A DNA stretch of 64,000 bases, from assembly GCA_944392815.1 (NCBI GenBank), contig CALXXY010000003.1, positions 20,096 through 84,095 on the forward strand, read 5' to 3'. How positions within the stretch are numbered: the stretch's first letter is position 1; each line of letters opens with the position of its first letter. The DNA is from an uncultured Alphaproteobacteria bacterium (GTDB lineage Bacteria; Pseudomonadota; Alphaproteobacteria; Rs-D84). The notes below the pieces were generated by a model that worked only from the letters and a program-made list of their open reading frames with translations, was not told the origin of the DNA and did not search any database. Positions 17,908 through 56,461 of this stretch are shown here, in pieces. Position numbers and translations under genes: made by a program.

Positions 17908-18020
17908 AACAAATATTTTACAGACACACGCCCCCAAAGTCAAATCGTTAATCGCCCAGCGCCCCAAAACAAAAATCCCGCACACAGCGGGATTTTTGTT
18001 TACAATAATTTCGCACAAAA

Positions 18021-21612: not shown

Positions 21613-21626
21613 TAAAAACACAAAAA

Positions 21627-21657
21627 TAAAAAATCCCGCAAATGCGGGATTTTTTAT
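21627..21657. terminator. Bidirectional terminator (lipoprotein gene / gdh)
   Basis: aaaaaatcccgcaaatgcgggatttttt. Confidence 0.75.
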
Positions 21658-22910
21658 TAATACCAACCGCGCAATTTCATAGCGGCCGCCACACGTTTGA
21701 TTGAATGCATGTATGCGGCTTCGCGCATAGACACATTGTATTCTTCTTTGATTTTATAAATCGCATCAAACGCAGATTTCATCGCGGCGATTTCTTTTTG
21801 TTCCACTTCGGATTCAGGCCAATAATACCCATACCGGTTTTGCACCCATTCGAAATATGACACAGTCACACCGCCGGCGTTTGCCAAAATATCCGGAACA
21901 ACCGTCACACCGTTTTTCAGCAAAATTTCTTCGCCGTCCAGTGTTGTCGGGCCGTTGGCGCCTTCGACCACCAGTTTTGTTTTAATCAATGGCGCAGTAT
22001 CATCATTGATTGTATTTTCCATCGCACACGGCGACAACACATCAACGTCCAGCCCCCAGAATTCTTCGGCACTGATTTCTGTCGCACCTGGGAATCCCTG
22101 GATATTGCCTTTGTGTTGCGCCTTGTATTCCATTAACGCATCGATATCCAACCCGCCTTCGTTATACAGCGTCACATTCCATTCGGCAATCGCAACAATT
22201 TTTGCGCCCATATCATGCGCACATTTCGCGGTAAAACTGCCGACATTGCCAAATCCCTGAACAGCAATACGCGCACCACGAATGTCTTTGCCTTGCTTTT
22301 TCAACGCTTCGCCCATGATAATGGAAATCCCCAGGCCTGTTGCCTTGCCACGACCCAAAGATCCCGCTAATTCAACGGGTTTGCCTGTAAATGTACCAAA
22401 CGCAGATTCACCAGATAATTTGATATATTCGTCCGTCATCCACGCCATAATCTGGGCGTTGGTATTAACATCAGGGGCGGGCACATCGCGCTTTTCACCC
22501 AAAATAGGATAGATCGCATCAACATATCCACGACACAAACGTTCCAATTCACCGGCGGACAATTCTTTTGGATTAACGATAACGCCACCTTTGCCGCCGC
22601 CATACGGAATGCCGGTCACAGAACATTTAAATGTCATCCAAATGGACAGGGCAGCAACCTCGTCCCGGGTCACATTTTGATGGAATCGAATTCCACCCTT
22701 GGACGGGCCCACAGCGGTATTATGCTGGGCACGGAACCCAGTAAACACGCGCACAGAACCATCGTCCATTTTAACAGGAATCGACACTTCGACCATACGT
22801 TGCGGATATTTTAAAATTTCATAAACGTCCGCCGGCATGCCCAATTTTTCACACGCGACACGCACACGCTGCTGTGCAGCAATTAACGGATTTAAATTTT
22901 CATTTGCCAT
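21657..22910 (-). CDS. gdhA: Glutamate dehydrogenase (Glu/Leu/Phe/Val dehydrogenase family, about 417 aa)
   Basis: GPSKGGIRFH catalytic lysine motif and Rossmann GFGNVG. Confidence 0.9.
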   Translation of the reverse strand: MANENLNPLIAAQQRVRVACEKLGMPADVYEILKYPQRMVEVSIPVKMDDGSVRVFTGFRAQHNTAVGPSKGGIRFHQNVTRDEVAALSIWMTFKCSVTGIPYGGGKGGVIVNPKELSAGELERLCRGYVDAIYPILGEKRDVPAPDVNTNAQIMAWMTDEYIKLSGESAFGTFTGKPVELAGSLGRGKATGLGISIIMGEALKKQGKDIRGARIAVQGFGNVGSFTAKCAHDMGAKIVAIAEWNVTLYNEGGLDIDALMEYKAQHKGNIQGFPGATEISAEEFWGLDVDVLSPCAMENTINDDTAPLIKTKLVVEGANGPTTLDGEEILLKNGVTVVPDILANAGGVTVSYFEWVQNRYGYYWPESEVEQKEIAAMKSAFDAIYKIKEEYNVSMREAAYMHSIKRVAAAMKLRGWY

Positions 22911-24225: not shown

Positions 24226-24410
24226 TTGGTGCGCGACGCGAGGATACCCGACTCACACCAACCCAAACGTATTTCTGGTGCGGGCGAAGGGAATCCGAAC
24301 GATTAAGCACCCGACGCGCGCCGTTATTAGGCGCAAGTCGTTGGTGCGCGACGCGAGGATACCCGACTCACATCAGCCCAAATAAATCTCTGGTGCGGGC
24401 GAAGGGAATC
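24226..24410. repeat. Imperfect tandem duplication (about 115-bp period) carrying a 20-nt copy of the tRNA-Gly 3' end
   Basis: ttggtgcgcgacgcgaggatacccgactcaca (32/32 identical) ... tggtgcgggcgaagggaatc (20/20) occurs at 24226-24295 and again at 24341-24410. The second copy runs into the real tRNA. Confidence 0.8.
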
Positions 24411-26649: not shown

Positions 26650-27729
26650 ATGAAAAGAATAGGCATCATGACAACCGGCGGCGATTGTTCCGGTTTGAAT
26701 ACAGTAATCCAGCGTTTATACCGTGGCGCAACATTGCGTGGTTGGCGCACCATCGGAATTCTGGACGGCACAGACGGCCTGTGCACAACGCCACCAATGG
26801 TTCTGGAATTTGACAACGACACTTTACCGATTGAATCGGCACGCCTGGCGGGCAGTTTTCTGCACAACGGTCGCGCGGGCGCATTAAATTTTGAAACCGC
26901 GGCCGAAACGGGAAAATTGTCACAATTTAATAAACAATTACGCAAATCATTAACAGATTTAAAACTGGACGCGTTAATTTTAATCGGCGGCAATGGCAGT
27001 TTATCACTCGCATGGCGCAATCGCGACATATATTCAGATCTGCAACTGATATGCATTCCAAAAACAATTGATATGGATATCCCGCTGACCGATAAAACAA
27101 TCGGATTCAACACTGCGGTTCAACAATTAACATCTTTCTGTGATCAATTAATGTTAACCGCCCGCAGTCATCACCGCTGGTTTGTGGTGCAAACAATGGG
27201 GCGCGACTGCGGCCAGTTGGCTTTAAATGCAGGCATTGCAATCGGCGCAACCGCGATATTAATTCCAGAAATAAAATTCGACGTAAATTCATTAATCGAA
27301 CACATAAAAAATTTCCCACGCGATTATGGAATAATCCTTGTATCCGAAGGCATATCCCTGCGGGGACATTCTGGCCGCCCGGCGGATATGATATCCCGCA
27401 AATTAACCGCGGCAAAAATATGCAATCGCACCGCATACCCCGAACACACCCAGCGTGTTGGCGACACCACCGCAGCGGACAGAATCCTGGCCGCCCGCAT
27501 GGCGGATTGTGCACTGCGTGCAATTGAAAATAATGAAACATATGTAATGACGGCGATCAAGGATTGCAAATGCGAAACGGTCAGTTTGGCGGACTTTTTC
27601 GCGGCGGGCGACGTGACGGCCGACCCCAATATTCCAGATTTACAAACGTCCGACGCATATGTATCACCGGACGACCCATTACTGGACATCGCAACCAGCA
27701 TGGGCATATACCTGGGCGAAATAAAATAA
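26650..27729 (+). CDS. pfk: 6-phosphofructokinase family protein
   Basis: IGIMTTGGDCSGLN N-terminal motif, LILIGGNGS, and MGR...G active-site region. Confidence 0.85.
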   Translation: MKRIGIMTTGGDCSGLNTVIQRLYRGATLRGWRTIGILDGTDGLCTTPPMVLEFDNDTLPIESARLAGSFLHNGRAGALNFETAAETGKLSQFNKQLRKSLTDLKLDALILIGGNGSLSLAWRNRDIYSDLQLICIPKTIDMDIPLTDKTIGFNTAVQQLTSFCDQLMLTARSHHRWFVVQTMGRDCGQLALNAGIAIGATAILIPEIKFDVNSLIEHIKNFPRDYGIILVSEGISLRGHSGRPADMISRKLTAAKICNRTAYPEHTQRVGDTTAADRILAARMADCALRAIENNETYVMTAIKDCKCETVSLADFFAAGDVTADPNIPDLQTSDAYVSPDDPLLDIATSMGIYLGEIK

Positions 27730-27846: not shown

Positions 27847-28032
27847 TTGTCGTATGATTATATTACTATCGCACAGGATGCCTGTTCAGATGGCTATATA
27901 TCCGCCGGTACAGCCACCAGTTGCCTGGCACCCAATCCGGGCGGTTCGTGCATAATGTACGCCCCGGTGGGCGTATCGTATACAGACGCCACCGGCACAT
28001 ATGAATTCGAACAACCCTGCGCCATGGAATAA
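27847..28032 (+). CDS. Small Cys/Gly/Thr-rich hypothetical protein (61 aa); homolog of the 47922-48272 product
   Basis: C-terminal TGTYEFEQPC matches SGTFVYDQDC in the second ORF, with third-codon-position differences. Weak RBS. Confidence 0.4.
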   Translation: MSYDYITIAQDACSDGYISAGTATSCLAPNPGGSCIMYAPVGVSYTDATGTYEFEQPCAME

Positions 28033-28042
28033 AATACAAACC

Positions 28043-28303
28043 GTCGCGTTCTAAAATGCCCACCGCCACCGGGTCCCGCGCAAACATAGTTTGCGTGGGT
28101 GGTTCCAGGGCGGGGGGGGGGGTGACGGTCGTCAGACCGTCGGGGGGTGGAGCACAATGACCACCCCATCGCAGAACAAAGTTCCCCTCTACGGAGGGGT
28201 GGCACGTAGTGCCGGGGTGGTATCCCGCGCCATTGGCGCGGACAACATCTACACTCTACACTCTAAACTCTATTATTCCCGCGCCGATGGCGCGGGAATA
28301 ATA
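28043..28303 (+). repeat. Repeat element copy A: 114-nt structured G-rich core plus hairpin module(s)
   Basis: About 97% identity with 48328-48441 over the core (28055-28167). Followed by several small hairpins and one 14-bp-stem hairpin (tattattcccgcgcc gatg gcgcgggaataata) that abuts the tolA stop codon. Confidence 0.85.
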
Positions 28304-36964: not shown

Positions 36965-37189
36965 ATGTCGCATTGGGTAAAAACAATTGTTGCCACATTC
37001 GCTATTTTTCAACTGACGCCATTATTTGCGGCAGAAACGCAGCAAATTGCATCGGTTTCATATGTTAACAAAATAACAGATGAATTGGATACCAAGGTTG
37101 ATATGGGATCAGCCCAAACAATATCCGGGGAAAAAACTTTTTCAGCCAGTCCGTTGGTTCCAACTCCACCATTACCACAGGATTTATAG
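36965..37189 (+). CDS. Small secreted hypothetical protein
   Basis: Signal-like N-terminus MSHWVKTIVATFAIFQLTPLFAA. Stop abuts the next gene start. Confidence 0.35.
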   Translation: MSHWVKTIVATFAIFQLTPLFAAETQQIASVSYVNKITDELDTKVDMGSAQTISGEKTFSASPLVPTPPLPQDL

Positions 37190-38994
37190 TGTTCAAAAAA
37201 ATCTGTGCCGCCATACTTGCAATATTTTTAATACTGCCAAATGTTGCAATCTCGGCGGAAATGGTAAATGTTGAATACGTTCACAATATCCTGCGTTGGC
37301 GCTGGGGAATTGATTTACCATATAATACAAACCTGACAAATCCTCATGTCGCTGCAAATATGAAATATTTGTTAACGGTTGTTGATATTGCAAACAAGCG
37401 ACTGAATGGTAAACAAACAACAGATTATGGCAACAGCGACTACGCCACACTGGCGGCGGCGGACACAGTTGCCACGAACACAGCGATTGACACATTGGTT
37501 CGTGGGCCTGGATTTTATTTGACGACCACTCCAGATACGACGAATTTTTCAATTACTATTACCGCCGCTGGAACTTTTGCAATTGATTGGGGTGACGGGG
37601 AACGCGAATCCATTGTCGATAAACCAGTTGCCGCAACAACATACTCTCACACATTTAAAACCCCGCAATCACACACAATTCGCATAACTGGCACCGCCAC
37701 AGATTACAGCGATGCCAACAACGTCAAAACATTATCTTTTAATAACAACACTGCTATTGCCAGAATTAATGGCAACCTGGGTTCTATATTTCCAACACTA
37801 TCGGACGGGACAAATCCGCGTTTTACCGAATTGTTTAACGACGCGACCAATTTGACGGGCGAAATTCCATCAGATTTATTCGACGGCATTACCGGTGCAG
37901 CAACGACATATATGTTCGGCAGCTTGTTTCGCAATTGCTCGAAATTAACGGGCGAAATTCCCGCCGATTTGTTTGCGGGCATCACAGGCCCATTGGCCCA
38001 AGGTACATTCGAAGCATCTTTTTATAGTTGCAGTGGACTGTCCGGCAGTATTCCTGGCGAATTATTTTCACGCATAACCAGCGACACACATGAAGTTTTA
38101 TTTAATCAAACCTTTCGCGGTTGCACTGGATTATCTGGTTCAATTCCCGGTGATTTATTCCAGGGTATCCGTGGCACGCCACGACGTGCAATGTTTTTTG
38201 CCGCATTCCGTAACTGCAGCAACATAACGGGTTCAATCCCAGGCGAATTATTTGCCGGCATCCAGGGCGCGCCAGCAACTTCTGTATTTGCCGAAACATT
38301 TGCATACACGGGACTAACTGGTTCTATTCCCGGCGAACTGTTCTCGGGCATCCAGGGAGCACCAGCCCATCAATTATTCAGCTATACATTTGCTGGTAAT
38401 CGCAGATTAACCGGTCAAATTCCAGGTGAATTATTTGCAGGCCTCCAGGGTGCACCAGCCCCATATGTATTCTCGAATACTTTTGTTCAATGCAGCGGCC
38501 TTGATAATCATATCCCAGCCGACCTGTTTGCGGGCATTCGTGGACAACCAGCCGAAGGAATGTTTGAGAGAACATTCAATGATGCCGGTGTAAGTTCAAT
38601 ACCCGATGGCTTGTTTGCTGACATCCAGGGTGAACCCGCGAACTTTATGTTTGAATCAACTTTTAACTGGAACCCAAGGTTAAACACAATTCCAGATGGT
38701 TTATTTGCTGGAATTTCTGGATCTCCGGCAACAAACATGTTTAGCAATACGTTTAATTATACGAGTATAACAAATATCCCAGACAATTTGTTCGGCACAT
38801 TCACAGATAACCCAGCGAATGGTATGTTTACCAGCACATTCGCCAATTGTCAAAACCTGACGGGACCATCTGCCAAAAATGGCGACGGCCGCTATCTGTA
38901 CGAGGTATTCACAAACATCACATCTGATATGAACACATACGCAAATTCACCAAATTTGTCGGATTACGACCAAATTCCAAACAACTGGAAATAA
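37189..38994 (+). CDS. Secreted protein with about 13 tandem 31-aa LRR-like repeats (C.SxLTGxIPxxLFxGIxGxPA)
   Basis: Signal peptide MFKKICAAILAIFLILPNVAISA. Repeats are evident at both protein and DNA level (they produce spurious minus-strand ORFs). Confidence 0.6.
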   Translation: MFKKICAAILAIFLILPNVAISAEMVNVEYVHNILRWRWGIDLPYNTNLTNPHVAANMKYLLTVVDIANKRLNGKQTTDYGNSDYATLAAADTVATNTAIDTLVRGPGFYLTTTPDTTNFSITITAAGTFAIDWGDGERESIVDKPVAATTYSHTFKTPQSHTIRITGTATDYSDANNVKTLSFNNNTAIARINGNLGSIFPTLSDGTNPRFTELFNDATNLTGEIPSDLFDGITGAATTYMFGSLFRNCSKLTGEIPADLFAGITGPLAQGTFEASFYSCSGLSGSIPGELFSRITSDTHEVLFNQTFRGCTGLSGSIPGDLFQGIRGTPRRAMFFAAFRNCSNITGSIPGELFAGIQGAPATSVFAETFAYTGLTGSIPGELFSGIQGAPAHQLFSYTFAGNRRLTGQIPGELFAGLQGAPAPYVFSNTFVQCSGLDNHIPADLFAGIRGQPAEGMFERTFNDAGVSSIPDGLFADIQGEPANFMFESTFNWNPRLNTIPDGLFAGISGSPATNMFSNTFNYTSITNIPDNLFGTFTDNPANGMFTSTFANCQNLTGPSAKNGDGRYLYEVFTNITSDMNTYANSPNLSDYDQIPNNWK

Positions 38995-40062: not shown

Positions 40063-40079
40063 TCTGTGTATTTATACAA

Positions 40080-40107
40080 AATCCGCCGTTTGGCGGATTT
40101 TTTTGTT
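40080..40107 (+). terminator. Terminator after rpsI
   Basis: aatccgccgtttggcggatttttttg. Confidence 0.7.
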
Positions 40108-42571: not shown

Positions 42572-43057
42572 ATGGAAACCAAATTAATGCCTATATTCGC
42601 ATTGCGTGCCATGTTGCTGCAACAGGTCAGCCCACAATGTTTTGCGCGCAATCACGATTTAATCACACGCACATCTCTGGCGGCCCAGGACTATGTTCGT
42701 TCGGGTAAATTTTACGAATACGATCGTCGCACAGGCCACGCATTCAAACAATTACCGGGCTATATTGCCGTACATAAACGTTATAACATACCATATAATC
42801 CAACGTCGTCCCAATTGGGGCTGTCCACTGTTAACCCAGGCCTGGTTATGGATTTGGCATGGGCATTGAATTCAGACATGTTGGCAAACATAGTTGACCA
42901 CAACGGCAACATAATTGCCCCCGACCGCCTGTTTTCATCAGAAGTCCTGCGTGTATATCACAATTCAAACGCATATGGCGTGCCAATTGACGCATTCAAC
43001 GCGATTCAGCGTCCCCAACGCACCGCCATGTTGTCGAAATTGCAACGCACAAAATAA
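42572..43057 (+). CDS. Hypothetical protein
   Basis: ORF with a terminator immediately downstream. No family recognised. Confidence 0.35.
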   Translation: METKLMPIFALRAMLLQQVSPQCFARNHDLITRTSLAAQDYVRSGKFYEYDRRTGHAFKQLPGYIAVHKRYNIPYNPTSSQLGLSTVNPGLVMDLAWALNSDMLANIVDHNGNIIAPDRLFSSEVLRVYHNSNAYGVPIDAFNAIQRPQRTAMLSKLQRTK

Positions 43058-43087
43058 AAAAATCCGGCCCCGCCGGATTTTTTTATT
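43058..43087 (+). terminator. Rho-independent terminator
   Basis: aaaaaaatccggccccgccggatttttttatt. Confidence 0.75.
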
Positions 43088-45536: not shown

Positions 45537-46091
45537 ATGAAACAGATGATTATCCTGATGGGCGGTCAGGGCGTAGGCAAGGGCACATTTGCACGCATGC
45601 TGCGCGAACGCCACAATTATGCATACATAGAAACGGGCAAAATGCTGCGCGACGCGGCGGCAACCGACAAAACAATCGGCGACATTATGGCACGCGGTGA
45701 ACTGTTGCCATTTGAAATGCTGGCAAAACTGGTTGCGGATAATATCCCCACCGACACAGACGTGTTAATGGACGGTTTTCCCCGCACATTGCCCCAGGCC
45801 CAATGGTTGGTTGAAAACTATGCCGATAAATTTGACGTCCGCGTGATATACCTGAATGTCCCCGAAGAAATCATGATTGCGCGCATTCAAAAACGCATAC
45901 GCGAGGGGGGCGGTCGTGCCGACGACGCTGACGCAGCCGCCGTGCGCAAACGTCTGGACATTTTTCAGTCGGAAACAATGCCGGCAATTGATTGGCTGCG
46001 CACAGTTCCCAACATATGTTTCGCAGATGTTGATGTATCGGGCGCGGTTGATGATAATTTCAAAAACATATTAACTGCATTGGAAAAATAA
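45537..46091 (+). CDS. adk: Adenylate kinase-family nucleoside monophosphate kinase (short form)
   Basis: P-loop GGQGVGKGT and the LMDGFPRT motif. Start at MKQMIILMGG. Confidence 0.65.
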   Translation: MKQMIILMGGQGVGKGTFARMLRERHNYAYIETGKMLRDAAATDKTIGDIMARGELLPFEMLAKLVADNIPTDTDVLMDGFPRTLPQAQWLVENYADKFDVRVIYLNVPEEIMIARIQKRIREGGGRADDADAAAVRKRLDIFQSETMPAIDWLRTVPNICFADVDVSGAVDDNFKNILTALEK

Positions 46092-46118
46092 AAAAATCGC
46101 CATTTGGCGATTTTTTTA
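46090..46118. terminator. Bidirectional terminator (adk-like / corA)
   Basis: aaaaaaatcgccatttggcgattttttta. Confidence 0.75.
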
Positions 46119-47001
46119 TACCACGCGCTGGCGTATAACACTGAACAGCGCAAATCCAATTAACAATATCATAATTAAAACAAATATCACCATGGACGTT
46201 TGTTCACTGTCTGCAAATGGCAAAGCCATATTCATGCCGTAATATCCAACTATCACGGTCGGCACCACCAAAATAATATTCCACATAGTCAGCCGATTAA
46301 TATACATATTTGAATCCATGTTAATAACGCTTTCGAACGTTTCTTTGATGGATTTCAACATTTTGCTGTACGACGTGACAACTTCTATACCCTGGGATAA
46401 TTCGATACGTGCGTCTTCGGTTAATTCGCGCGCTTCTTCTGTTTTAACGAATCCGCGAACCTTTTCCAATTTATCCAACACAGCAACATTTCCCTTCAGC
46501 CCGGCCATATACAGGGTATAACTGTTTTCAACCTCTAACAGTGCCATCAGTTCGTTTTTACGCACCCGTTCCTGCAAAACCCGTTTGGACGCCAACACGC
46601 GCTTGTTTAATTCCTTTAAAAACCGCAGGTACGATTCGGCGATATAGTAAATAATGTTCAAAACAAATTCTTCGCGCGACGTTTTTTCGTCCCGTTTGAT
46701 TCTGTCCAGCAAATCACAACGCTTGCGACACACAGTAATAACACGATTTGCCGAATAAATTATAGACAGCGGTTCAGTATGCCACAACGTATCAGTTTCG
46801 CGATTTATAATTGGGAAACGCACGATGATAACCTTGTAATCATCTTCGACTTCGAATCGTGGCTGTTCATCAGGATCCAAAATATCTGAAATAGTATCCT
46901 GGTCAATTTTATATTCACTTTGCAGACGTTCAAAATCTTCGTGATCGGGATTTCCAACATTCACCCATGAAAAACTTTTTAATTTTTCAGTCACAAACAT
47001 T
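46116..47001 (-). CDS. corA: Magnesium/cobalt transporter CorA
   Basis: YGMNM signature in the penultimate TM and two C-terminal TM helices. Start probably at MFVTEKLK. Confidence 0.85.
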
Positions 47002-47396: not shown

Positions 47397-47517
47397 ACGT
47401 ACGCATATTTATACAATTCCCACGCAGTAAAAGCAAGTATATTTTATGCTTGCACGAATCGGAAAAAAGTTATTAGTATTCGGCATATCAATATTAATAA
47501 CACCAGGGAGTAAATCC

Positions 47518-47895
47518 GTGATAGCAGGTATTGGAATTGATTTGGTCGAATGCGACAGATTTCTGGATTGGTCTGCATTCAAAAAACAGCGTATATTTAC
47601 AAAAAAAGAATTGGAATATGCCGACAATGACAATGCCAATTCTGAAAAACATCTGGCAAATTTCTGGGCCGCGCGCGAGGCATGCTTAAAAGCACTCGGC
47701 ACAGGTTTCGGTGACGACATCGGATTTTCAGACGTATCGGTCACCCACAACGACGCGGGTCGGCCAGAATTATTAATAACCGGCGGGGCCAAGGCCGCGT
47801 TAAAGGAATTAGCCGGCCCCAACGCGTCAGTATTTTTGTCCATCACTGACCAGGAGGATTATTCCGCCGCGATGGTTGTAATTGAACGCCAATAA
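47518..47895 (+). CDS. acpS: Holo-ACP synthase (4'-phosphopantetheinyl transferase)
   Basis: GTG start VIAGIGIDLVE. AcpS motifs (GIDL, W..KEA..KA.G). Confidence 0.8.
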   Translation: MIAGIGIDLVECDRFLDWSAFKKQRIFTKKELEYADNDNANSEKHLANFWAAREACLKALGTGFGDDIGFSDVSVTHNDAGRPELLITGGAKAALKELAGPNASVFLSITDQEDYSAAMVVIERQ

Positions 47896-47923
47896 AAAAT
47901 CCGCCACCCGGCGGATTTTTATT
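47895..47923 (+). terminator. Terminator after acpS
   Basis: aaaaaatccgccacccggcggattttta. Confidence 0.75.
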
Positions 47924-48272
47924 ATGGCTGATATCTGCAATCCTGATCATATACAAACGTGCCACTGGGTTCAATAAACGGGTCATTGGATTGCGCATAG
48001 CAGGCGGCAATGCCGTTTATGCCCGTTCTGGAATGAACCACAACAAATGGATTCCCAACAATCACAGGCACAGTCCCCGGAATTTCGAATCCGATCTCGC
48101 CATTAACCCCGGCACCCAGGCAACAACTGATTGTCGTGCCTTCGTGCCCAACCCTCACACTATATCCGGCATATCCGGACGTGTTGGGTATTGCGGCAAC
48201 AGTTTCTGTAAAGTTTCCATTTGTACCGCATTTATATATTGTGCCACACGGTTCGGGGAATGGGATCGCCAC
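47922..48272 (-). CDS. Small Cys/Gly/Thr-rich hypothetical protein (116 aa, GTG start); homolog of the 27847-28032 product
   Basis: C-terminal SGTFVYDQDCRYQP vs TGTYEFEQPCAME in the other ORF. Cys spacing is conserved. Confidence 0.4.
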   Translation of the reverse strand: MAIPFPEPCGTIYKCGTNGNFTETVAAIPNTSGYAGYSVRVGHEGTTISCCLGAGVNGEIGFEIPGTVPVIVGNPFVVVHSRTGINGIAACYAQSNDPFIEPSGTFVYDQDCRYQP

Positions 48273-48287
48273 CGCCCCATGTGATAT

Positions 48288-48706
48288 GTCGCGTTGGGGC
48301 AGTGGTATACGAACGGTGAAATATCAGAATGCCCACCGCCGACCGGGCCCCGCGCAAACATAGTTTGCGTGGGTGGTTCCAGGGCGGGGGGGGGGGTGAC
48401 GGTCGTCAGACCGTCGGGGGGTGGGGCACAATGACCACCCCGTCGCGCAAAGCGTGGCGATCCAGTAAATAAAAAAGTACTGCGGGCGAACGCCCGCAGA
48501 CATATTGCACTGGATTGCCACAGTCGTACGCCAACGTTTTCAACGTTGATCGTACTCCTTCGCAATGACAGGAGCAGAGTGGACATTATCTACACTCTAT
48601 ACTCTACACTCTTCACTCTATTATTCCCGCACCAGCGGGAATAATATAACTCTCCACTCTATTATTGTCACGCTGTGCGTGACAATAATATCACTCTGCG
48701 CGGGAA
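48288..48706 (+). repeat. Repeat element copy B: 114-nt structured core plus longer array of hairpin modules
   Basis: Core at 48328-48441. Hairpins include ctgcgggcg aa cgcccgcag, tattattcccgc acca gcgggaataata and tattattgtcacgc tgtg cgtgacaataata, with ACTCT-type short repeats between. Ends at the stop codon of the 788-aa gene. Confidence 0.85.
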
Positions 48707-48708
48707 AT

Positions 48709-51075
48709 TTATATCAATGGCGGGAAACAATCGCCCCCTGATTGTGGGCAACAATTAAATCCCATGTCGCCCATATCTGTATAAATCTCGCCTGGGCAAC
48801 AGCCATTCACATCGGGCGCACTGCCGTCTGGACACGCCGGCAAATTTGATGGAACTTCTTCCTGCCACACAACGGACGTCACCGATTGCGGCACGTATTC
48901 ATCATTGGTCGCAACTGCGCCACCGCCAACATTCGTGGTCGCACCCGCCGTCACCACAGACGGCCCAGTCGTATCCACAGCCACCATATTTTCATTACGC
49001 AACGTTTCCGTATCGTAATTCGAATCGGCAACGAACATATTTTCATTCTGTGATACGTTGTACGCGGGCTTGCTGGCCAAAATATCCTCTTCGGATTCCA
49101 CAACAACTGATTCGGGTTCGCTGACCGGCACAGGCGGTGTCACATTCACCGATTCGATAACAACATCAGCGTCCTGGACAGGTTGCGGTTCCAACACAAC
49201 CGTTTCCGGTTCGGGCTGCGCCACAGGTTCCGGTTCACTGACCGGCACAGGCACAGGTTCTGGTTCGGGCTGTGCCACAGGTTCCGGCTCGTCTACAACG
49301 GGCGCCGGCACTTCGACAACAGCGGGCTCGACCACCGGGGCGGGCGTTTCAATTTCAGGTATAAACGGACTGTCGGCCGCATCACCGCTTTCATCAGTCG
49401 CGACATCAGCCACCTGGGCTGTTGGCACCGTTGTGGTTAAATCGGGCACCTGGTCATTGGTATTACGCTGATACAGCCACAATGTAAATATCGACAACCC
49501 GATCAATAATATCAACAACAGATAATACACAAACGTCGGCTTGCGCGGGGCAGGATTTGTCGGCGCAGCGGTCCCCGTTATTGGCGACACAGGGCGGGGT
49601 GCATTCGCACCGGCGGGTGCATTTACCGCCGGTGACACCGGTCGCGCCGCGGCACTGGCCGCTGGGGCGGGTGTCGGCATCGGATTTTGCATTCCCGCAT
49701 TATTCCCGGGCGCCGCCACACTATCGTCCGCAACCGGCGGCACCGGGGCGGGACGTACAGGTTGTGCGGGTTGAACTGGCTGTACAGGTTCAGTCGTATT
49801 CGCCCCCATTAATTCAGAATCCAATTGAACATTTGAATCCACATCATTCGGCTGGGGAATATCAACCGACGTAATCGTATCCAACACAGGCGCAGATTGT
49901 GGCACAGTGGGCGCAACATCGTCGTTCGTCACAGGCGTCACATTTATTGGTGCACTATCCCCAACCGGGGCGGGCGCCGCCGCGGGTTCAGATTGCGTTG
50001 GTGGCGTAAACGACAACGGTTTTTCATCAATCACACTGTCATACAAATCATCAGTCGACTGACCAGAATTTTCCACAGGACTGGACACACCGAATTCAAT
50101 CGGTTTAAACGCGATATCTTCGTCCATTATATCTGGATTTTTGTCGAACAAAGGTTGTACTTCGTCATTTTTCATTGTTTCGTCGGCCATATTTTCCGCC
50201 TTTGGTTCTGCTGTATTAAATTCAATTTCTTTGTCATATGTTATATCAGCGACGTCATTGTCATCATCAACATCGTCCACGTCATCATCATACGAAATAT
50301 TATACGACGTCACCACAGGTGCGTCCACAGATTCCGCCGGCATAACAACATTTTTCGCCGGCGCCACATTTGCGACCATGGTCGCGTCACTGGTTGCGGG
50401 GCGGGCCAAAATCTCGCGCGCGGCGGCGGCATCTTCATCAGCCACTATCAAACGCCGTTGTGCATTGGATAAACGTTTTTTCGCGCGACGCAATTTTTCA
50501 TTTGTCGCATCAATTTGTGCATCTGTCCGTAAAATTTTCGACGCAGATTGTTTTGTCGGCTCGCGCCCAACTTTCTTTTTTTGCTGTGATAACTGTGCCC
50601 GCAAAGAACGCAATTTGACCTGTAATTCATCGATAGTTTCACGCGCACGGGTAATGGTTTCGCGCGCCCGGTCAGCATTCGATTCCGCCATAGCCAACCG
50701 TTCAGCCGCAGCGCGCCGGACTGAATCCTCGCGAAAATGGGTTAATGCAACCAGCGCATCGGACAAATCAGCCCCATTTTCATACGCACGAATTAAATCG
50801 TCGTATTCCGACAGCCCGCTGTATTCAATATCCAACTTTTGATATTTATTATTTTTCTTTGGCCGCACAGTTTCCAAATCAACCCCATAATCATTGGCCA
50901 AAATATCGTCCCATTTGCGATCACCCACGGGATTAATCACCAACAACGCGTTAGGTTTGCGATTATCAACGGTATTATCCAACACGAACACCAATTTACC
51001 GTCCGCGTCATAATACGCCCGCAGCGCATTTCCGCCGATATTATATTCCCTGAATGTTAAAACAGAATTATCCAT
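48709..51075 (-). CDS. Large Pro/Glu/Val-rich membrane protein (unknown function)
   Basis: 788 aa: N-terminal globular and coiled-coil region, acidic stretch, one TM helix (FVYYLLLILLIGLSIFTLWLY), PEPV-type repeats, and a C-terminal Cys cluster (NGCCPGEIY...FNCCPQSGGDC). Confidence 0.5.
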   Translation of the reverse strand: MDNSVLTFREYNIGGNALRAYYDADGKLVFVLDNTVDNRKPNALLVINPVGDRKWDDILANDYGVDLETVRPKKNNKYQKLDIEYSGLSEYDDLIRAYENGADLSDALVALTHFREDSVRRAAAERLAMAESNADRARETITRARETIDELQVKLRSLRAQLSQQKKKVGREPTKQSASKILRTDAQIDATNEKLRRAKKRLSNAQRRLIVADEDAAAAREILARPATSDATMVANVAPAKNVVMPAESVDAPVVTSYNISYDDDVDDVDDDNDVADITYDKEIEFNTAEPKAENMADETMKNDEVQPLFDKNPDIMDEDIAFKPIEFGVSSPVENSGQSTDDLYDSVIDEKPLSFTPPTQSEPAAAPAPVGDSAPINVTPVTNDDVAPTVPQSAPVLDTITSVDIPQPNDVDSNVQLDSELMGANTTEPVQPVQPAQPVRPAPVPPVADDSVAAPGNNAGMQNPMPTPAPAASAAARPVSPAVNAPAGANAPRPVSPITGTAAPTNPAPRKPTFVYYLLLILLIGLSIFTLWLYQRNTNDQVPDLTTTVPTAQVADVATDESGDAADSPFIPEIETPAPVVEPAVVEVPAPVVDEPEPVAQPEPEPVPVPVSEPEPVAQPEPETVVLEPQPVQDADVVIESVNVTPPVPVSEPESVVVESEEDILASKPAYNVSQNENMFVADSNYDTETLRNENMVAVDTTGPSVVTAGATTNVGGGAVATNDEYVPQSVTSVVWQEEVPSNLPACPDGSAPDVNGCCPGEIYTDMGDMGFNCCPQSGGDCFPPLI

Positions 51076-51105: not shown

Positions 51106-51657
51106 CTATTTTTTCTTTGGCGGTGTAAATTGATATGCCTGCTTGCAGTGCTCATAACAATACGGTTTGCCAACAAACACAGGTGCGCCACAGAAATGGA
51201 ACCCCTCGGAATCAGGGTCACCAATTGGCCACCGGCATTGATTTGGTTTCAAATTCGCCAATTCCAACGCATGCTGTACAATACGCTGATGCATGGCCAA
51301 ATTTTTATTCAAAGATTTCCCACCACGTGCGGTCGTCGTGGTCGTGGTTGCCTTTTTTGCGCCACCAGCCACAGTTTTCCCGCCGCGGGTCGCTGTACGT
51401 GTCGCAGTGGCACGCCTGGCCGTGGTGGTTGATTTTTTCACAGTCACCTTGGGCGCAGTTTTTTTTGCGGGTTCCTTTTTCTTGGCCGTGGCACCGGCAA
51501 CCCCGCCGGCCTTGGAATTCCAGCCCAGTCGATTTAATTTGCCAACAACGGCGTTTTTACTCATGCCCAAACGTTTGCCGATTTCGGCGGTGGACAAACC
51601 CTTGCCCGTCAGGGCTTTTAATTTTTTCAGTGTGGCGTTATCCCAACCTTTACTCAT
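51106..51657 (-). CDS. gcrA: Cell-cycle transcriptional regulator GcrA
   Basis: N-terminal W..[ED]....L..L...G.S...I...LG domain. C-terminal CRWPIGDP ... FCGA ... YC..H motif characteristic of GcrA. Confidence 0.8.
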   Translation of the reverse strand: MSKGWDNATLKKLKALTGKGLSTAEIGKRLGMSKNAVVGKLNRLGWNSKAGGVAGATAKKKEPAKKTAPKVTVKKSTTTARRATATRTATRGGKTVAGGAKKATTTTTTARGGKSLNKNLAMHQRIVQHALELANLKPNQCRWPIGDPDSEGFHFCGAPVFVGKPYCYEHCKQAYQFTPPKKK

Positions 51658-51730
51658 TTTAAAAAATCCTTGTTATACATATCGGTATAATTGTAGCATA
51701 GTTTCGAATCGAAAGGCAAGGGGGAAAAAT

Positions 51731-52189
51731 ATGTTTTATTATATCTTTTTTATTATTTTGTTGGCGGGTGCCGCCGCATGTGCATGGGGTATTTCGCGCG
51801 CAGATTTCCGTCGGCGTATTATCCCGGACGCATACCTGTTTCCACTGTTGCTGATTGGATTGGTCGTCACCCAGTTTTTCCCATGGCCCGTCACCCCATC
51901 AGACGGCGCAATTGCGGCCGTGGCCGGATATACATTAACATCATTAATCGGATTAATATTTGAAAAATTCCAACCCAGCCAAACACCCCCCATCGGCATG
52001 GGCGATATAAAATTGATTTCAGTGGCCGGCATTTGGCTGGGGTCAGTTGGATTGGCGGGCGCATTGGCATTGGCGTGCATATCGGGCATGATTTGGGGCG
52101 CAACAAAAAAACAAAAATACATTCCATTTGGACCGTTTCTGATAATCGGTGGAATTTTATCTTTAATTACAATAACGTTTTTGATATAA
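51731..52189 (+). CDS. Type IV prepilin peptidase family protein (A24, short CpaA-like)
   Basis: Two catalytic Asp motifs (RRIIPD and GMGDIKL), 4-5 TM helices. The longer annotated ORF from 51293 is antisense to gcrA and rejected. Confidence 0.65.
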   Translation: MFYYIFFIILLAGAAACAWGISRADFRRRIIPDAYLFPLLLIGLVVTQFFPWPVTPSDGAIAAVAGYTLTSLIGLIFEKFQPSQTPPIGMGDIKLISVAGIWLGSVGLAGALALACISGMIWGATKKQKYIPFGPFLIIGGILSLITITFLI

Positions 52190-53100: not shown

Positions 53101-54267
53101 ATGTTTTTACGACCAATCGTATTTTCTGTATTGTGCACATTCATCGGCATACACGGTGCGAATGCCCTGATGTGGAATGATCCGAATGTAAACCTTGTCC
53201 AAAGCGTATCTGATCACCGTTATCGTGACGCCAACACGGGTCGATATGTAAGTACCGCCGGAATGCCAGCGGTACCGCCAGTGGTCGGCAGCCCAACTGG
53301 TACTGGTACAGGCACCGGAACCGGTACTGGTACAGGAACTGGAACAGGTACGGGAACCGGTACTGGTACAGGCGCTGGAACAGGTACGGGAACTGGAACC
53401 GGTACTGGTACAGGCGCTGGGGCTGGTGGCGGTGGCACCGCCGGCAGAATTCGCACCAATTGGTCAAATATGTCACGTGGCGCACGTATCGGCACTGGGA
53501 TTGGTATCGTCGCTGGTACAGCGGGTGTTGTGACATCTGGCCTGGGGAACCAGGAACACGGTGCCGGCAACGTGGTTGGTGGCGCATTAAGTGGTGCCGC
53601 AGCGGGCGCCTCTGTTGGCAGTTTAATCGCCCCAGGTCTGGGTACTGCTATCGGTGCAGGTGTTGGCGCATTGGCCGGTGCATTGTACCCTGCGGCAAAG
53701 GTATTTTCCGAAACAGATTGCCTGCGCGATCCTGTCACCGGGGCATACACATGTTGCAATACCGCATTTAACAAAGGCGACCGCGTCGTTCCAATTGGCG
53801 GATTCATGTTCTGTGGCGCCGAAGATGGCTCGCAAAACACACCGTTCCAGGTACGTCAATGTCTGCAGGGCAAACCAAAGGACGAATCAACCTGGACCGA
53901 CCAGGGTAAAAAATGGTACGAAGGCGGCATGTGGGTTGATGATTTTTGGGCACCTGAATGCACGGTCAGATTTTGCAACACCGCCCCAACCCAGGGCATA
54001 GAAAATTATATTATACCGGTCCAGGACACAACAAATTTCTGTTGGGATTGGAAATGTATTGATGGATACGAACGTTCCGGGGACACATGTGTCATCGCGG
54101 GCGGTGGCGGCAACGGAACGACGGGTGGCGCACCGGTCACACCATATACAAATCCGACAAACCCGACCGCCGATCAATACGATGAATTAATCAAACGACT
54201 GCAATTGCAACGCCAATTAATATTGCAGGAATGCGGTTATATGGTGAACACACAAAACCAAAATTAA
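53101..54267 (+). CDS. Secreted protein with (Thr-Gly)n dipeptide repeat, glycine-zipper segment and Cys-rich C-terminal domain
   Basis: Signal peptide. About 22 TG/AG dipeptides encoded by an imperfect GGTACN 6-bp tandem repeat (53299-53435). Confidence 0.45.
   Translation: MFLRPIVFSVLCTFIGIHGANALMWNDPNVNLVQSVSDHRYRDANTGRYVSTAGMPAVPPVVGSPTGTGTGTGTGTGTGTGTGTGTGTGTGAGTGTGTGTGTGTGAGAGGGGTAGRIRTNWSNMSRGARIGTGIGIVAGTAGVVTSGLGNQEHGAGNVVGGALSGAAAGASVGSLIAPGLGTAIGAGVGALAGALYPAAKVFSETDCLRDPVTGAYTCCNTAFNKGDRVVPIGGFMFCGAEDGSQNTPFQVRQCLQGKPKDESTWTDQGKKWYEGGMWVDDFWAPECTVRFCNTAPTQGIENYIIPVQDTTNFCWDWKCIDGYERSGDTCVIAGGGGNGTTGGAPVTPYTNPTNPTADQYDELIKRLQLQRQLILQECGYMVNTQNQN
53299..53435 (+). repeat. Imperfect hexanucleotide tandem repeat (GGTACN, about 22 units) inside a CDS
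   Basis: ggtactggtacaggcaccggaaccggtactggtacaggaactggaacaggtacg... read directly from the sequence. Confidence 0.85.
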
Positions 54268-56415: not shown

Positions 56416-56427
56416 ATAATACCATAA

Positions 56428-56458
56428 AACAAAAATCCGCCACCTGGCGGATTTTTTA
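56428..56458. terminator. Rho-independent terminator
   Basis: aaaaatccgccacctggcggattttttatt. Confidence 0.75.
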
Positions 56459-56461
56459 TTC

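Follow-up and report, generated by a model that had tools for sequence, protein, structure and literature searches.

Strongly folding, modular intergenic repeats of 100–200 nt are represented by BOX in Streptococcus pneumoniae, RIME in Rhizobium, and RPE in Rickettsia. RIME and RPE provide alphaproteobacterial precedents for such sequences, including in reduced genomes, and RPEs are often inserted in frame into genes. The pilE G-quadruplex (G4) of Neisseria gonorrhoeae is found at one locus, ahead of the expressed gene, and depends on an internal promoter. REPs bearing a GTAG or CGTC tag have been surveyed by Di Nocera et al. (2013, PMC3733652), and the tag criteria applied here are taken from that work. 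In the NIME arrays of Neisseria, RS elements are separated by dRS3 repeats (ATTCCC-N8-GGGAAT), and Sma/Cla sequences are also mentioned (PMC1797815).

We focus here on a composite palindromic repeat that occurs twice, as copies A and B, in a 64-kb stretch of DNA (the window, meaning the whole of the sequence analyzed). Both copies are probably members of a family of composite extragenic palindromic repeats specific to the lineage of Candidatus Enterousia-like alphaproteobacteria (Rs-D84), and the best reading of the repeat is a DNA-level, REP/BIME- or NIME-like mosaic that constitutes a previously undescribed family. The window is a housekeeping chromosomal stretch (~46% GC) with seven tRNAs, rpsA, L13/S9, L19, S16, trmD, ruvB, exbBD, thyA, lpxAB, and other genes. 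The presence of GcrA and TrcR among its proteins indicates an alphaproteobacterium, and its S1 protein falls into the same 90%-identity cluster as that of Candidatus Enterousia excrementavium. Candidatus Enterousia, like the rest of its order, Rs-D84, is an uncultured gut lineage whose genomes measure ~1 Mb or less and are ~90% coding (PMC12306168).

Alignment, BLASTN, and a repeat search (family D5) delimit copy A to 28055-28172 (118 nt) and copy B to 48328-48446 (119 nt). The two are 96.6% identical and differ by three substitutions (T/C at 28074, A/G at 28151, and A/G at 28168) and a 1-nt indel, copy B having one additional G following the site defined below. An earlier sequence-only reading had described a near-identical intergenic core present twice, and both statements are borne out, each copy lying within a convergent intergenic region. 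The place it gave was also right, yet its span (28055-28167) stops at the end of hairpin 3, whereas identity continues for another 5 nt. D5 is the sole long dispersed repeat within the 64-kb window, where neither a covariance model of the element nor the repeat search found a third copy. Core sub-patterns of 18 and 23 nt occur exactly twice versus 0.00-0.01 times expected from shuffles, which excludes chance as the source of the repeat. Locus A was independently assembled in other samples (L034, L047-L050, and L054, where L0xx designates a locus on a metagenome contig), as was locus B (L036 and L037); the duplication is therefore not an assembly artifact. The flanks had been called unrelated, which holds on the left, where the sequences flanking copies A and B also have no similarity at the protein level, and over the first 75-150 nt on the right, but not farther out. 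There, a second block (D14; 28248-28285 versus 48596-48633) composed of heptad repeats and the ATTATTCCCGC hairpin is common to both loci at 89% identity. The features of the two loci are as follows.

26650-27729, plus strand: PFK gene and terminator, upstream of copy A
27847-28032, plus strand: remnant of a two-gene cassette for small cysteine-rich secreted proteins, between the PFK terminator and copy A
28055-28172, plus strand: copy A of the composite palindromic repeat (core), right-truncated, without the inverted second U
28055-28067, plus strand: the site, AATGCCCACCGCC, 5′ arm of a basal stem pairing with the G run
28068-28104, plus strand: REP-like unit U (ACCGGGTCCCGCG..CGTGGGTGGTT), containing hairpin 1
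28075-28099, plus strand: hairpin 1, CCCGCGCAAAC-ATA-GTTTGCGTGGG, with loop ATA and one G·T pair
28108-28122, plus strand: GGGC and G11 (28112-28122), 3′ arm of the basal stem
28124-28141, plus strand: hairpin 2, GACGGTC-GTCA-GACCGTC
28142-28167, plus strand: second G run (G6) and hairpin 3, GGGGTGG-N10-CCACCCC (28144-28167)
28173-28220: module right of copy A, hairpins CCCCTC-TACG-GAGGGG and GGCAC-GTA-GTGCC, with GGGGTGG at its end
28225-28302: block at the right of locus A, with hairpin CCGCGCC-ATT-GGCGCGG, a heptad array, and terminal hairpin ATTATTCCCGCGCC-GAT-GGCGCGGGAATAAT
downstream of copy A, minus strand: stop of a 259-aa gene, itself after exbD
47446-47895, plus strand: ACPS gene and terminator, upstream of copy B
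47922-48279, minus strand: 5′-truncated cysteine-rich secreted-protein gene, between the ACPS terminator and copy B
48269-48327, plus strand: module M1, a hairpin whose 5′ arm is the site-like CCACCGCC
48328-48446, plus strand: copy B, with site 48328-48340, U 48342-48378, and G11 48386-48396
48398-48415 and 48418-48441, plus strand: hairpins 2 and 3 of copy B
48447-48580: module M3c, a long hairpin, with a minus-strand terminator-like stem at 48480-48499
48589-48692: heptad array and two ACTCT-tagged hairpins with ATTATT stems, beside the stop of a 788-aa gene
downstream of copy B, minus strand: stop of the 788-aa gene

All three hairpins recognized by the sequence-only reading exist, with the correction that hairpin 1 had been transcribed with one g too many (its loop is ATA), and the G11 tract that it noted is present in both copies. 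As RNA, the core region folds far below shuffled sequences on one strand (z = -7.1) and on the other (z = -6.8), and the DNA fold of the core is likewise lower (z = -5.2). The surrounding modules recur as well. The heptad array at locus A (28248-28268) consists of TCTACAC-like units in variable number, and the terminal hairpin of the block at 28225-28302, which is common to locus B, abuts the stop of the convergent 259-aa gene. Module M1 is also found ahead of the array at locus A in L055, L058, L061, and L062, while M3c reappears, in either orientation, in other strains at locus A as well as at two additional loci.

The first relatives were recovered via contigs encoding the flanking proteins. 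In addition, the core was translated in all frames and protein collections were searched for the resulting spurious ORFs. An exhaustive phmmer search of 1.84 billion representative proteins retrieved 67 clusters of spurious ORFs from repeat modules, and a word-indexed search with concatenated core translations, saturated by low-complexity words, gave three matches leading to L065 and L066. The loci reached through spurious ORFs comprise L065 (tlyA-ftsJ/mscL), L066 and L068 (enolase/OmpA), L067, and L069. In total, 24 copies were examined (window and L034-L069). At least 22 of the family lie outside the window, on metagenome contigs of its own and related lineages, and the copies occupy four chromosomal contexts: PFK/259-aa gene, ACPS/788-aa gene, tlyA-ftsJ/mscL, and enolase/OmpA. 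Searches by nucleotide pattern were unproductive: the hairpin 2 pattern gave 33 chance matches in high-GC genomes of the genome collection, none with the other hairpin; exact core patterns gave 0 matches in metagenome and viral contigs; and copy A with its 3′ flank matched none of 72,556 plasmids and 50,697 phages.

In all 24 copies the parts come in one order: the site, an optional U nested within the basal stem, the G run, hairpin 2, G6-TGG, and finally either hairpin 3 or inserted sequence. The site, AATGCCCACCGC(C), has its first 12 nt identical in 24/24 copies. As the 13-14-nt sequence (G)AATGCCCACCGCC, it stands at the left junction of every module, each of which begins directly after it, and L055 and L058 contain three sites each, at spacings of 62 and 254 nt. 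Unit U (consensus CGGGYCCCGCG..CGTGGGTGG, 33-37 nt) occurs 17 times on both strands of the loci scanned, with an inner stem found in three compensated versions (CAAAC/GTTTG, GAC/GTC, and AAAAT/ATTTT). Full-length copies end in an inverted second U (L055 5105-5134, L065 6171-6203, and L068 5631-5660), and the full-length element folds into one long imperfect palindrome. Its inverted ends measure 14 to ~35 nt (L055 4991-5137 and L065 6053-6212) and are absent from the window copies, which are the left four-fifths of this longer palindromic element, truncated on the right. The suggestion that the core is the conserved end of a miniature mobile element came close, in that the window copies are the left part of an element whose full-length copies elsewhere end in an inverted U. 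In the inverted right-hand copy of U, the G·T wobble is on the opposite strand, which points to an inverted DNA repeat and not to an RNA selected on one strand.

Hairpin 2 is the part with the clearest record of compensated change. At least seven sequence versions of it exist across the copies, all of which pair. A model-based alignment of 15 copies shows changes on both sides at three of the seven hairpin 2 pairs (22 cells), a level of covariation reached by 0/500 shuffles, and pairing collapses with slid partners. Hairpin 2 supplies three of the four covarying pairs; the fourth, in a short stem at the base of U, is a single cell. The other 34 pairs in this alignment are unchanged or changed on one side only; the helices besides hairpin 2, being invariant, carry no covariation information. 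Sequence identity also speaks of constraint. Two lineages share ~80% identity in the core at their orthologous enolase locus, where the enolase region is 82% identical, and a core copy is 94% identical between L055 and L065, versus 79% for gene b of the neighboring two-gene cassette. As judged by sequence comparison, ~80% retention at an orthologous position together with an invariant 12-13-nt site suggests a sequence-specific function, which the label "selfish repeat" would leave unexplained.

Remnants of small cysteine-rich secreted-protein genes adjoin the element at both loci. At locus A, two deletions have left 44 nt of gene a fused with the 3′ portion of gene b (27847-28032); the two-gene cassette a+b is intact in L055, L057, L058, and L062. 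The truncated gene at locus B (47922-48279) has a full 179-aa form with a signal peptide in L041. Pfam scans of the cysteine-rich proteins gave no match above threshold. Clustering at 90% identity divides the gene b family into 227 clusters, all drawn from metagenomes of this kind, and one MAG has at least three paralogues. The protein of gene b is most conserved at its C-terminus, the part adjoining the element. The association between element and gene family is incomplete, as L068 carries the element without cysteine-rich genes and L070 the genes without the element.

Both loci are hypervariable between strains. At locus A, PFK and the 259-aa gene lie as little as 278 nt apart in L056 and as much as 1.7 kb apart in L055, where genes a and b are intact and a longer array of modules comes after them. 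Locus B varies between conserved boundaries at 47924 and 48649: L036 and L037 carry the core, which is missing from L038, L043, L045, and L046, and L039-L041 possess full-length cysteine-rich genes with a strong promoter module. This promoter module is bounded by inverted CCACCGTTT/AAACGGTGG, which have CCACCG in common with the site. At the tlyA-mscL locus, the element is absent in the window's own species (L070-L075) and present in two copies in L065. Where strains diverge, the breakpoints coincide with the site and with the CCACCCC/GGGGTGG arms. The segment 28173-28220 is inverted relative to L059, L060, and L070 between these arms, the loop and 3′ arm of hairpin 3 are a point of insertion and inversion in other copies, and ~260 nt are inserted in the hairpin 3 loop of L068. 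The core of L066 is oriented opposite to gene b. From strain to strain, a module is present or absent, or inverted between palindrome arms; modules also sit inside hairpin loops and are shuffled among loci. The arrays lie past one gene's terminator and before the convergent gene's stop, beside multicopy cysteine-rich genes that are gained, truncated, or lost.

The first G run also varies, with lengths of G5, G6, G7, G8, G10, and G11 across copies and G6 in the majority of them. Seven assemblies, the window among them, have G10 or G11 at locus A; at locus B the run is G5, G6, or G11. The earlier suggestion of a potential slipped-strand (phase-variable) tract is supported at the population level by this length range of 5-11, but no gene is visibly switched by the G run. 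One filled/empty pair was found: L058 reads ..CCCACCGCC|CACCCCTCC.. where L055 holds the element between CGCC and CGCC, so that this single pair differs by exactly the element. Since both full-length copies with readable flanks (L055 and L065) share those flanks, block copying fits as well as transposition.

Like the REP, BIME, and REPIN sequences of enterobacteria and pseudomonads, unit U is a 30-40-nt imperfect palindrome whose outer stem is conserved while its inner stem and loop vary with compensated changes, and it is repeated in both orientations. Further likenesses are the inverted unit pairs of full copies, the location downstream of genes between convergent ORFs, and the organization in mosaic clusters together with other motifs. 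The inverted doublet typical of REPINs is present in L055, L065, and L068, whereas the window copies have a single U. The differences begin with the tag: U and hairpin 2 have neither GTAG nor CGTC and no CCA tail, and in place of REP tags they are flanked by ACCGGG and GGTGGTT (U) and by G runs (hairpin 2). Only the terminal hairpins at 28272-28302 and 48617-48692, with an ACTCT tag and stems starting with AT, resemble the alphaproteobacterial CGTC type. Unlike REPs, U occurs at much lower density and forms part of a larger arrangement of fixed order (site, G runs, and hairpins 2 and 3), and in contrast to REP-RAYT systems, a scan of 40 window proteins showed no RAYT gene. Two observations sit less comfortably with a REP-like family, namely, the low observed copy number (2 per 64 kb) and the position of most copies beside one gene family instead of scattered through the genome as for classical REPs.

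The closest functional analogy is the neisserial NIME array, in which, as here, a short invariant repeat marks the junctions of diverse 50-250-nt modules. Array length and content vary by strain in both cases (three sites in L055 and L058, with variation at both loci), genes for variable surface or secreted proteins lie alongside the arrays together with truncated, silent-like copies, and GC-rich units stand out against AT-richer surroundings. The junction repeat is nevertheless AATGCCCACCGCC and not dRS3; it is one hairpin arm instead of a self-contained 20-bp palindrome, the lineage differs at the phylum level, the sequences differ, and no integrating phage or IS110-type enzyme is known for it. 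Only the terminal hairpin ATTCCCGCGCC-GAT-GGCGCGGGAAT (28275-28299, 13-nt center) loosely resembles dRS3. BOX, RIME, and RPE have no sequence similarity to the repeat, and the in-frame gene insertion known from RPE is not seen here. To our knowledge, the site/G-run pairing and the G4 motif have no counterpart in BOX, RIME, or RPE. Like the pilE G4 and Sma/Cla, the repeat combines a G4-capable sequence with a conserved noncoding block beside variable gene copies; unlike the pilE G4, it exists in many copies downstream of genes, and G4 formation and gene conversion are at most predicted. The sequence-only reading had recognized no standard RNA family and no described REP/RPE repeat, and this stands, with the addition that the element is of the same general kind as REP/RPE.

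Several other assignments were rejected. The ends are without the AAC/GTT core sites (RYYYAAC..GTTRRRY) of an integron attC. A DGR target/IMH does not fit copies that differ at T/C and A/G with most adenines kept and a core lying past a stop codon; the gene b C-terminus is moreover the most conserved part, and no RT was found in window scans. A tRNA 3′-end remnant at the site fails the T-loop and C61 rules as judged by eye. Coding sequence was dismissed because the minus-strand ORFs at 27894-28205 and 48155-48586 differ in frame between copies, with a frame shift at the G run. A genomic island with attL/attR direct repeats is contradicted by the genes in the 20 kb separating the copies, namely, rpsA, L13/S9, ruvB, exbBD, and thyA.

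Three further explanations merit weighing against the DNA-level repeat family. That only two copies lie in the 64-kb window would agree with a one-off segmental duplication or assembly artifact and no family, an extremely improbable reading that is refuted by the independent contigs reproducing both loci in other samples, by the more than 20 additional copies with diverged hairpin 2 in other contexts and lineages, and by the 67 ORF clusters bearing the repeat's modules. A cis-acting structured RNA, be it a read-through 3′ UTR element stabilizing or terminating mRNA or a small RNA with two paralogous genes, is a fairly unlikely alternative. It would account for the strong predicted fold (z = -7.1), the covarying hairpin 2, the G·U pairs of hairpin 1 and the basal stem, which suit the plus strand, the placement of the core mostly on the same strand as, and just 3′ of, the upstream gene (locus A of the window, L055, L065, L067, and L068), and the ~80% identity of the core at the orthologous enolase locus. 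However, compensated stems are also seen in palindromic DNA repeats such as REPs, and the inverted U has its wobble on the other strand, as in a DNA inverted repeat. The core had no Rfam match even at E ≤ 10 in the scan that had been called for, and matches at the gathering score in the window are tRNAs only. At relaxed cutoffs (E ≤ 10 or E ≤ 1), the matches were of a chance miRNA type and fell on neighboring hairpins only. No promoter or intrinsic terminator bracketing the core was found, nor any conserved sequence upstream of the site, which differs in every copy. The element is dispensable at every locus examined, the L066 core opposes gene b, and copy B follows the ACPS terminator and a 5′-truncated antisense gene fragment. 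The small structured RNA gene family suggested by the sequence-only reading is therefore not supported, given the Rfam result, the missing promoter and terminator, the presence/absence polymorphism, the occurrence in both orientations, and the strand of the U wobble.

The element might instead be a programmed recombination signal, in which the invariant site or the G4 GGG-C-GGG..[hairpin 2]..GGG-T-GGG would start cassette exchange, inversion, or gene conversion; by analogy with dRS3/NIME arrays and the Neisseria pilE G4, the outcome would be variation of the neighboring cysteine-rich secreted proteins. We regard this as unlikely. In its favor, none of the 24 copies deviates from the site, which stands precisely where modules meet and occurs as many as three times in one array, strain breakpoints coincide with it and with the CCACCCC/GGGGTGG arms, and GGGCGGGGGGGGGGG in the two window cores accounts for the only two canonical G4 motifs on the plus strand of the window. 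Other copies keep G3-N1-G3..hairpin..G3-N1-G3, and four G3 tracts with 1-nt outer loops and a hairpin as central loop are present in every copy except copy A, in which TGGAG interrupts the last tract. The neighbors are multicopy, secreted, variably truncated, and silent-cassette-like, the promoter module of other strains at locus B lies between inverted repeats sharing CCACCG with the site, and NIME arrays have been described in like terms (PMC1797815). On the other side, no recombinase gene was found among the window proteins scanned, the G runs are equally explicable as 3′ stem arms to the C-rich site and CCACCCC, G4 formation is predicted from the motif, the part of gene b adjoining the element is its conserved C-terminus and not its variable part, and L068 and L070 break the link to the gene family. 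A more specific version, about as unlikely, is a hairpin/G-quadruplex switch or recombinase binding/cleavage site that would drive exchange, inversion, and silencing of cysteine-rich secreted-protein cassettes in reduced-genome gut symbionts. If true, the recombination signal would amount to an antigenic/phase-variation system like pilE-G4 and NIME in Alphaproteobacteria. The invariant site and the conserved G3-C-G3..hairpin..G3-T-G3 layout do exceed the needs of a selfish repeat.

The DNA-level reading of the REP/BIME/REPIN or NIME type is preferred on account of the stacked palindromic units, the inverted doublets, the location in convergent spacers after genes, the nesting and inversion between palindrome arms, the presence/absence polymorphism, and the lack of transcription signals. 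The repeat is filed as a new family because it fails the sequence criteria of the described ones, having no GTAG/CGTC tag and no dRS3. Under this preferred reading, the element would act as hairpin- or cruciform-prone and slippage-prone DNA. Recombination may copy and homogenize it between loci by gene conversion, and short-homology deletion and inversion may take place at the site and at the CCACCCC/GGGGTGG arms. Transposition could contribute, as the filled/empty pair has terminal inverted repeats and a 4-bp CGCC direct repeat. We infer these means of spread alongside an enzyme search that covered the 40 window proteins, among which scans against Pfam found no transposase, RAYT, or recombinase. 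An RNA effect, such as REP-like 3′-end protection of read-through transcripts, would be secondary.

Repeated noncoding DNA retained in ~1-Mb, ~90%-coding genomes is unlikely to be neutral filler. The arrays mark the most divergent places between strains, where small secreted cysteine-rich genes are gained, truncated, swapped, and lost; the encoded proteins probably face the host or other microbes, and the repeat family is a practical marker of such hot spots. It also explains metagenome assembly breaks and the dozens of spurious Pro/Gly/Arg-rich "proteins" called at these positions. Should the invariant site turn out to serve as a recombination signal, it would give new access to surface variation in minimal symbionts.

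At locus B, the intergenic region between the ACPS gene and the gene for the 788-aa protein, three metagenome contigs from other strains (L039, positions 940-1130; L040, 1105-1266; L041, 1122-1197) carry a near-consensus promoter, TTGACA-17-TAAAAT, with an adjoining terminator-like module. Inverted CCACCGTTT/AAACGGTGG sites flank each module separately, and these sites share CCACCG with the invariant site of the palindromic intergenic repeat (the C-rich 5′ arm of its basal stem). The relative order and orientation of the two modules differ among the three contigs, with the promoter directed toward a 179-aa cysteine-rich gene in one contig and a divergent 255-aa gene in another. The arrangement looks like an invertible promoter or a shufflon-type switch. 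Both modules are absent from the window.

Intrinsic terminators of a common design lie at seven positions in the window:
17963-18000, intrinsic terminator
21621-21658, intrinsic terminator
40078-40103, intrinsic terminator
43050-43087, intrinsic terminator
46083-46120, intrinsic terminator
47887-47924, intrinsic terminator
56423-56460, intrinsic terminator
All seven are built on one template, AAAAATCCGCC..GGCGGATTTTT, and correspond to families D2 and D3 from a repeat search of the window; given their symmetry, they are able to act in both directions.

The two-gene cassette encoding small cysteine-rich secreted proteins (genes a and b) displays noncoding features of its own:
L055 3694-3913, leader of ~220 nt upstream of gene a
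L065 5080-5290, the same leader
L070 3700-3990, tandem repeats of ~90 nt
L065 7540-7730, tandem repeats of ~90 nt
Folded by eye, the leader forms several hairpins, and its 3′ end is a terminator-like stem with a T run immediately before the ribosome-binding site. It has no Rfam match and may constitute an attenuator or riboswitch; in the window it is deleted, at ~27818. The ~90-nt repeats lie within a 1.7-kb AT-rich, A-skewed noncoding spacer between the cassette and mscL, a length unusual for a genome of ~1 Mb.

Additional repeats in the window and at other loci are as follows:
24226-24295 and 24341-24410, 70-nt direct repeat, 91% identical
28248-28268 and 48589-48616, tandem heptads
L046, L059, L061, L065 6560-6590 and L068 5410-5445, tandem heptads
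37849-38450, reiterated segments of families D4 and D6 inside ORF 37189-38994
53271-53432, 12-nt periodic GGTACNGGNACN array encoding a Gly-Thr repeat in ORF 53101-54267
49100-49290, Pro-rich repeat in the 788-aa protein (ORF 48709-51075)

The 70-nt repeat takes in the 3′ end of tRNA-Gly(CCC) and yields a second, orphan tRNA 3′ end; one unit is absent from L048, and the repeat may be an integrated-element scar or att-site duplication. The heptads (TCTACAC, TCTAAAC or TCTCCAC; TTACTCG in other lineages) number three to five units depending on the strain, adjoin hairpins with stems starting ATTATT in every case, and look like the reiterated 5′ tag of a CGTC-type REP.

Among the repeat-containing ORFs, the D4/D6 segments, spaced by 93 nt or multiples of ~90-93 nt, encode an N(L/I)TGxIPxxLFxGI-like motif that looks leucine-rich-repeat-like, and the 601-aa product has no Pfam match. 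Neither the 788-aa protein nor the product of ORF 53101-54267 has a firm Pfam family, the latter giving only weak glycine-zipper matches; a prepilin-peptidase-like gene (51293-52189) adjoins both ORFs.

Gene callers have generated dozens of spurious "proteins" (P0061-P0130) from the GC-rich arrays of the palindromic intergenic repeat, with Pro-, Gly- and Arg-rich sequences such as ..NAHRHRVPRKHSLRGWFQGGG.. These entries pollute protein databases and are usable as a handle for locating the element.
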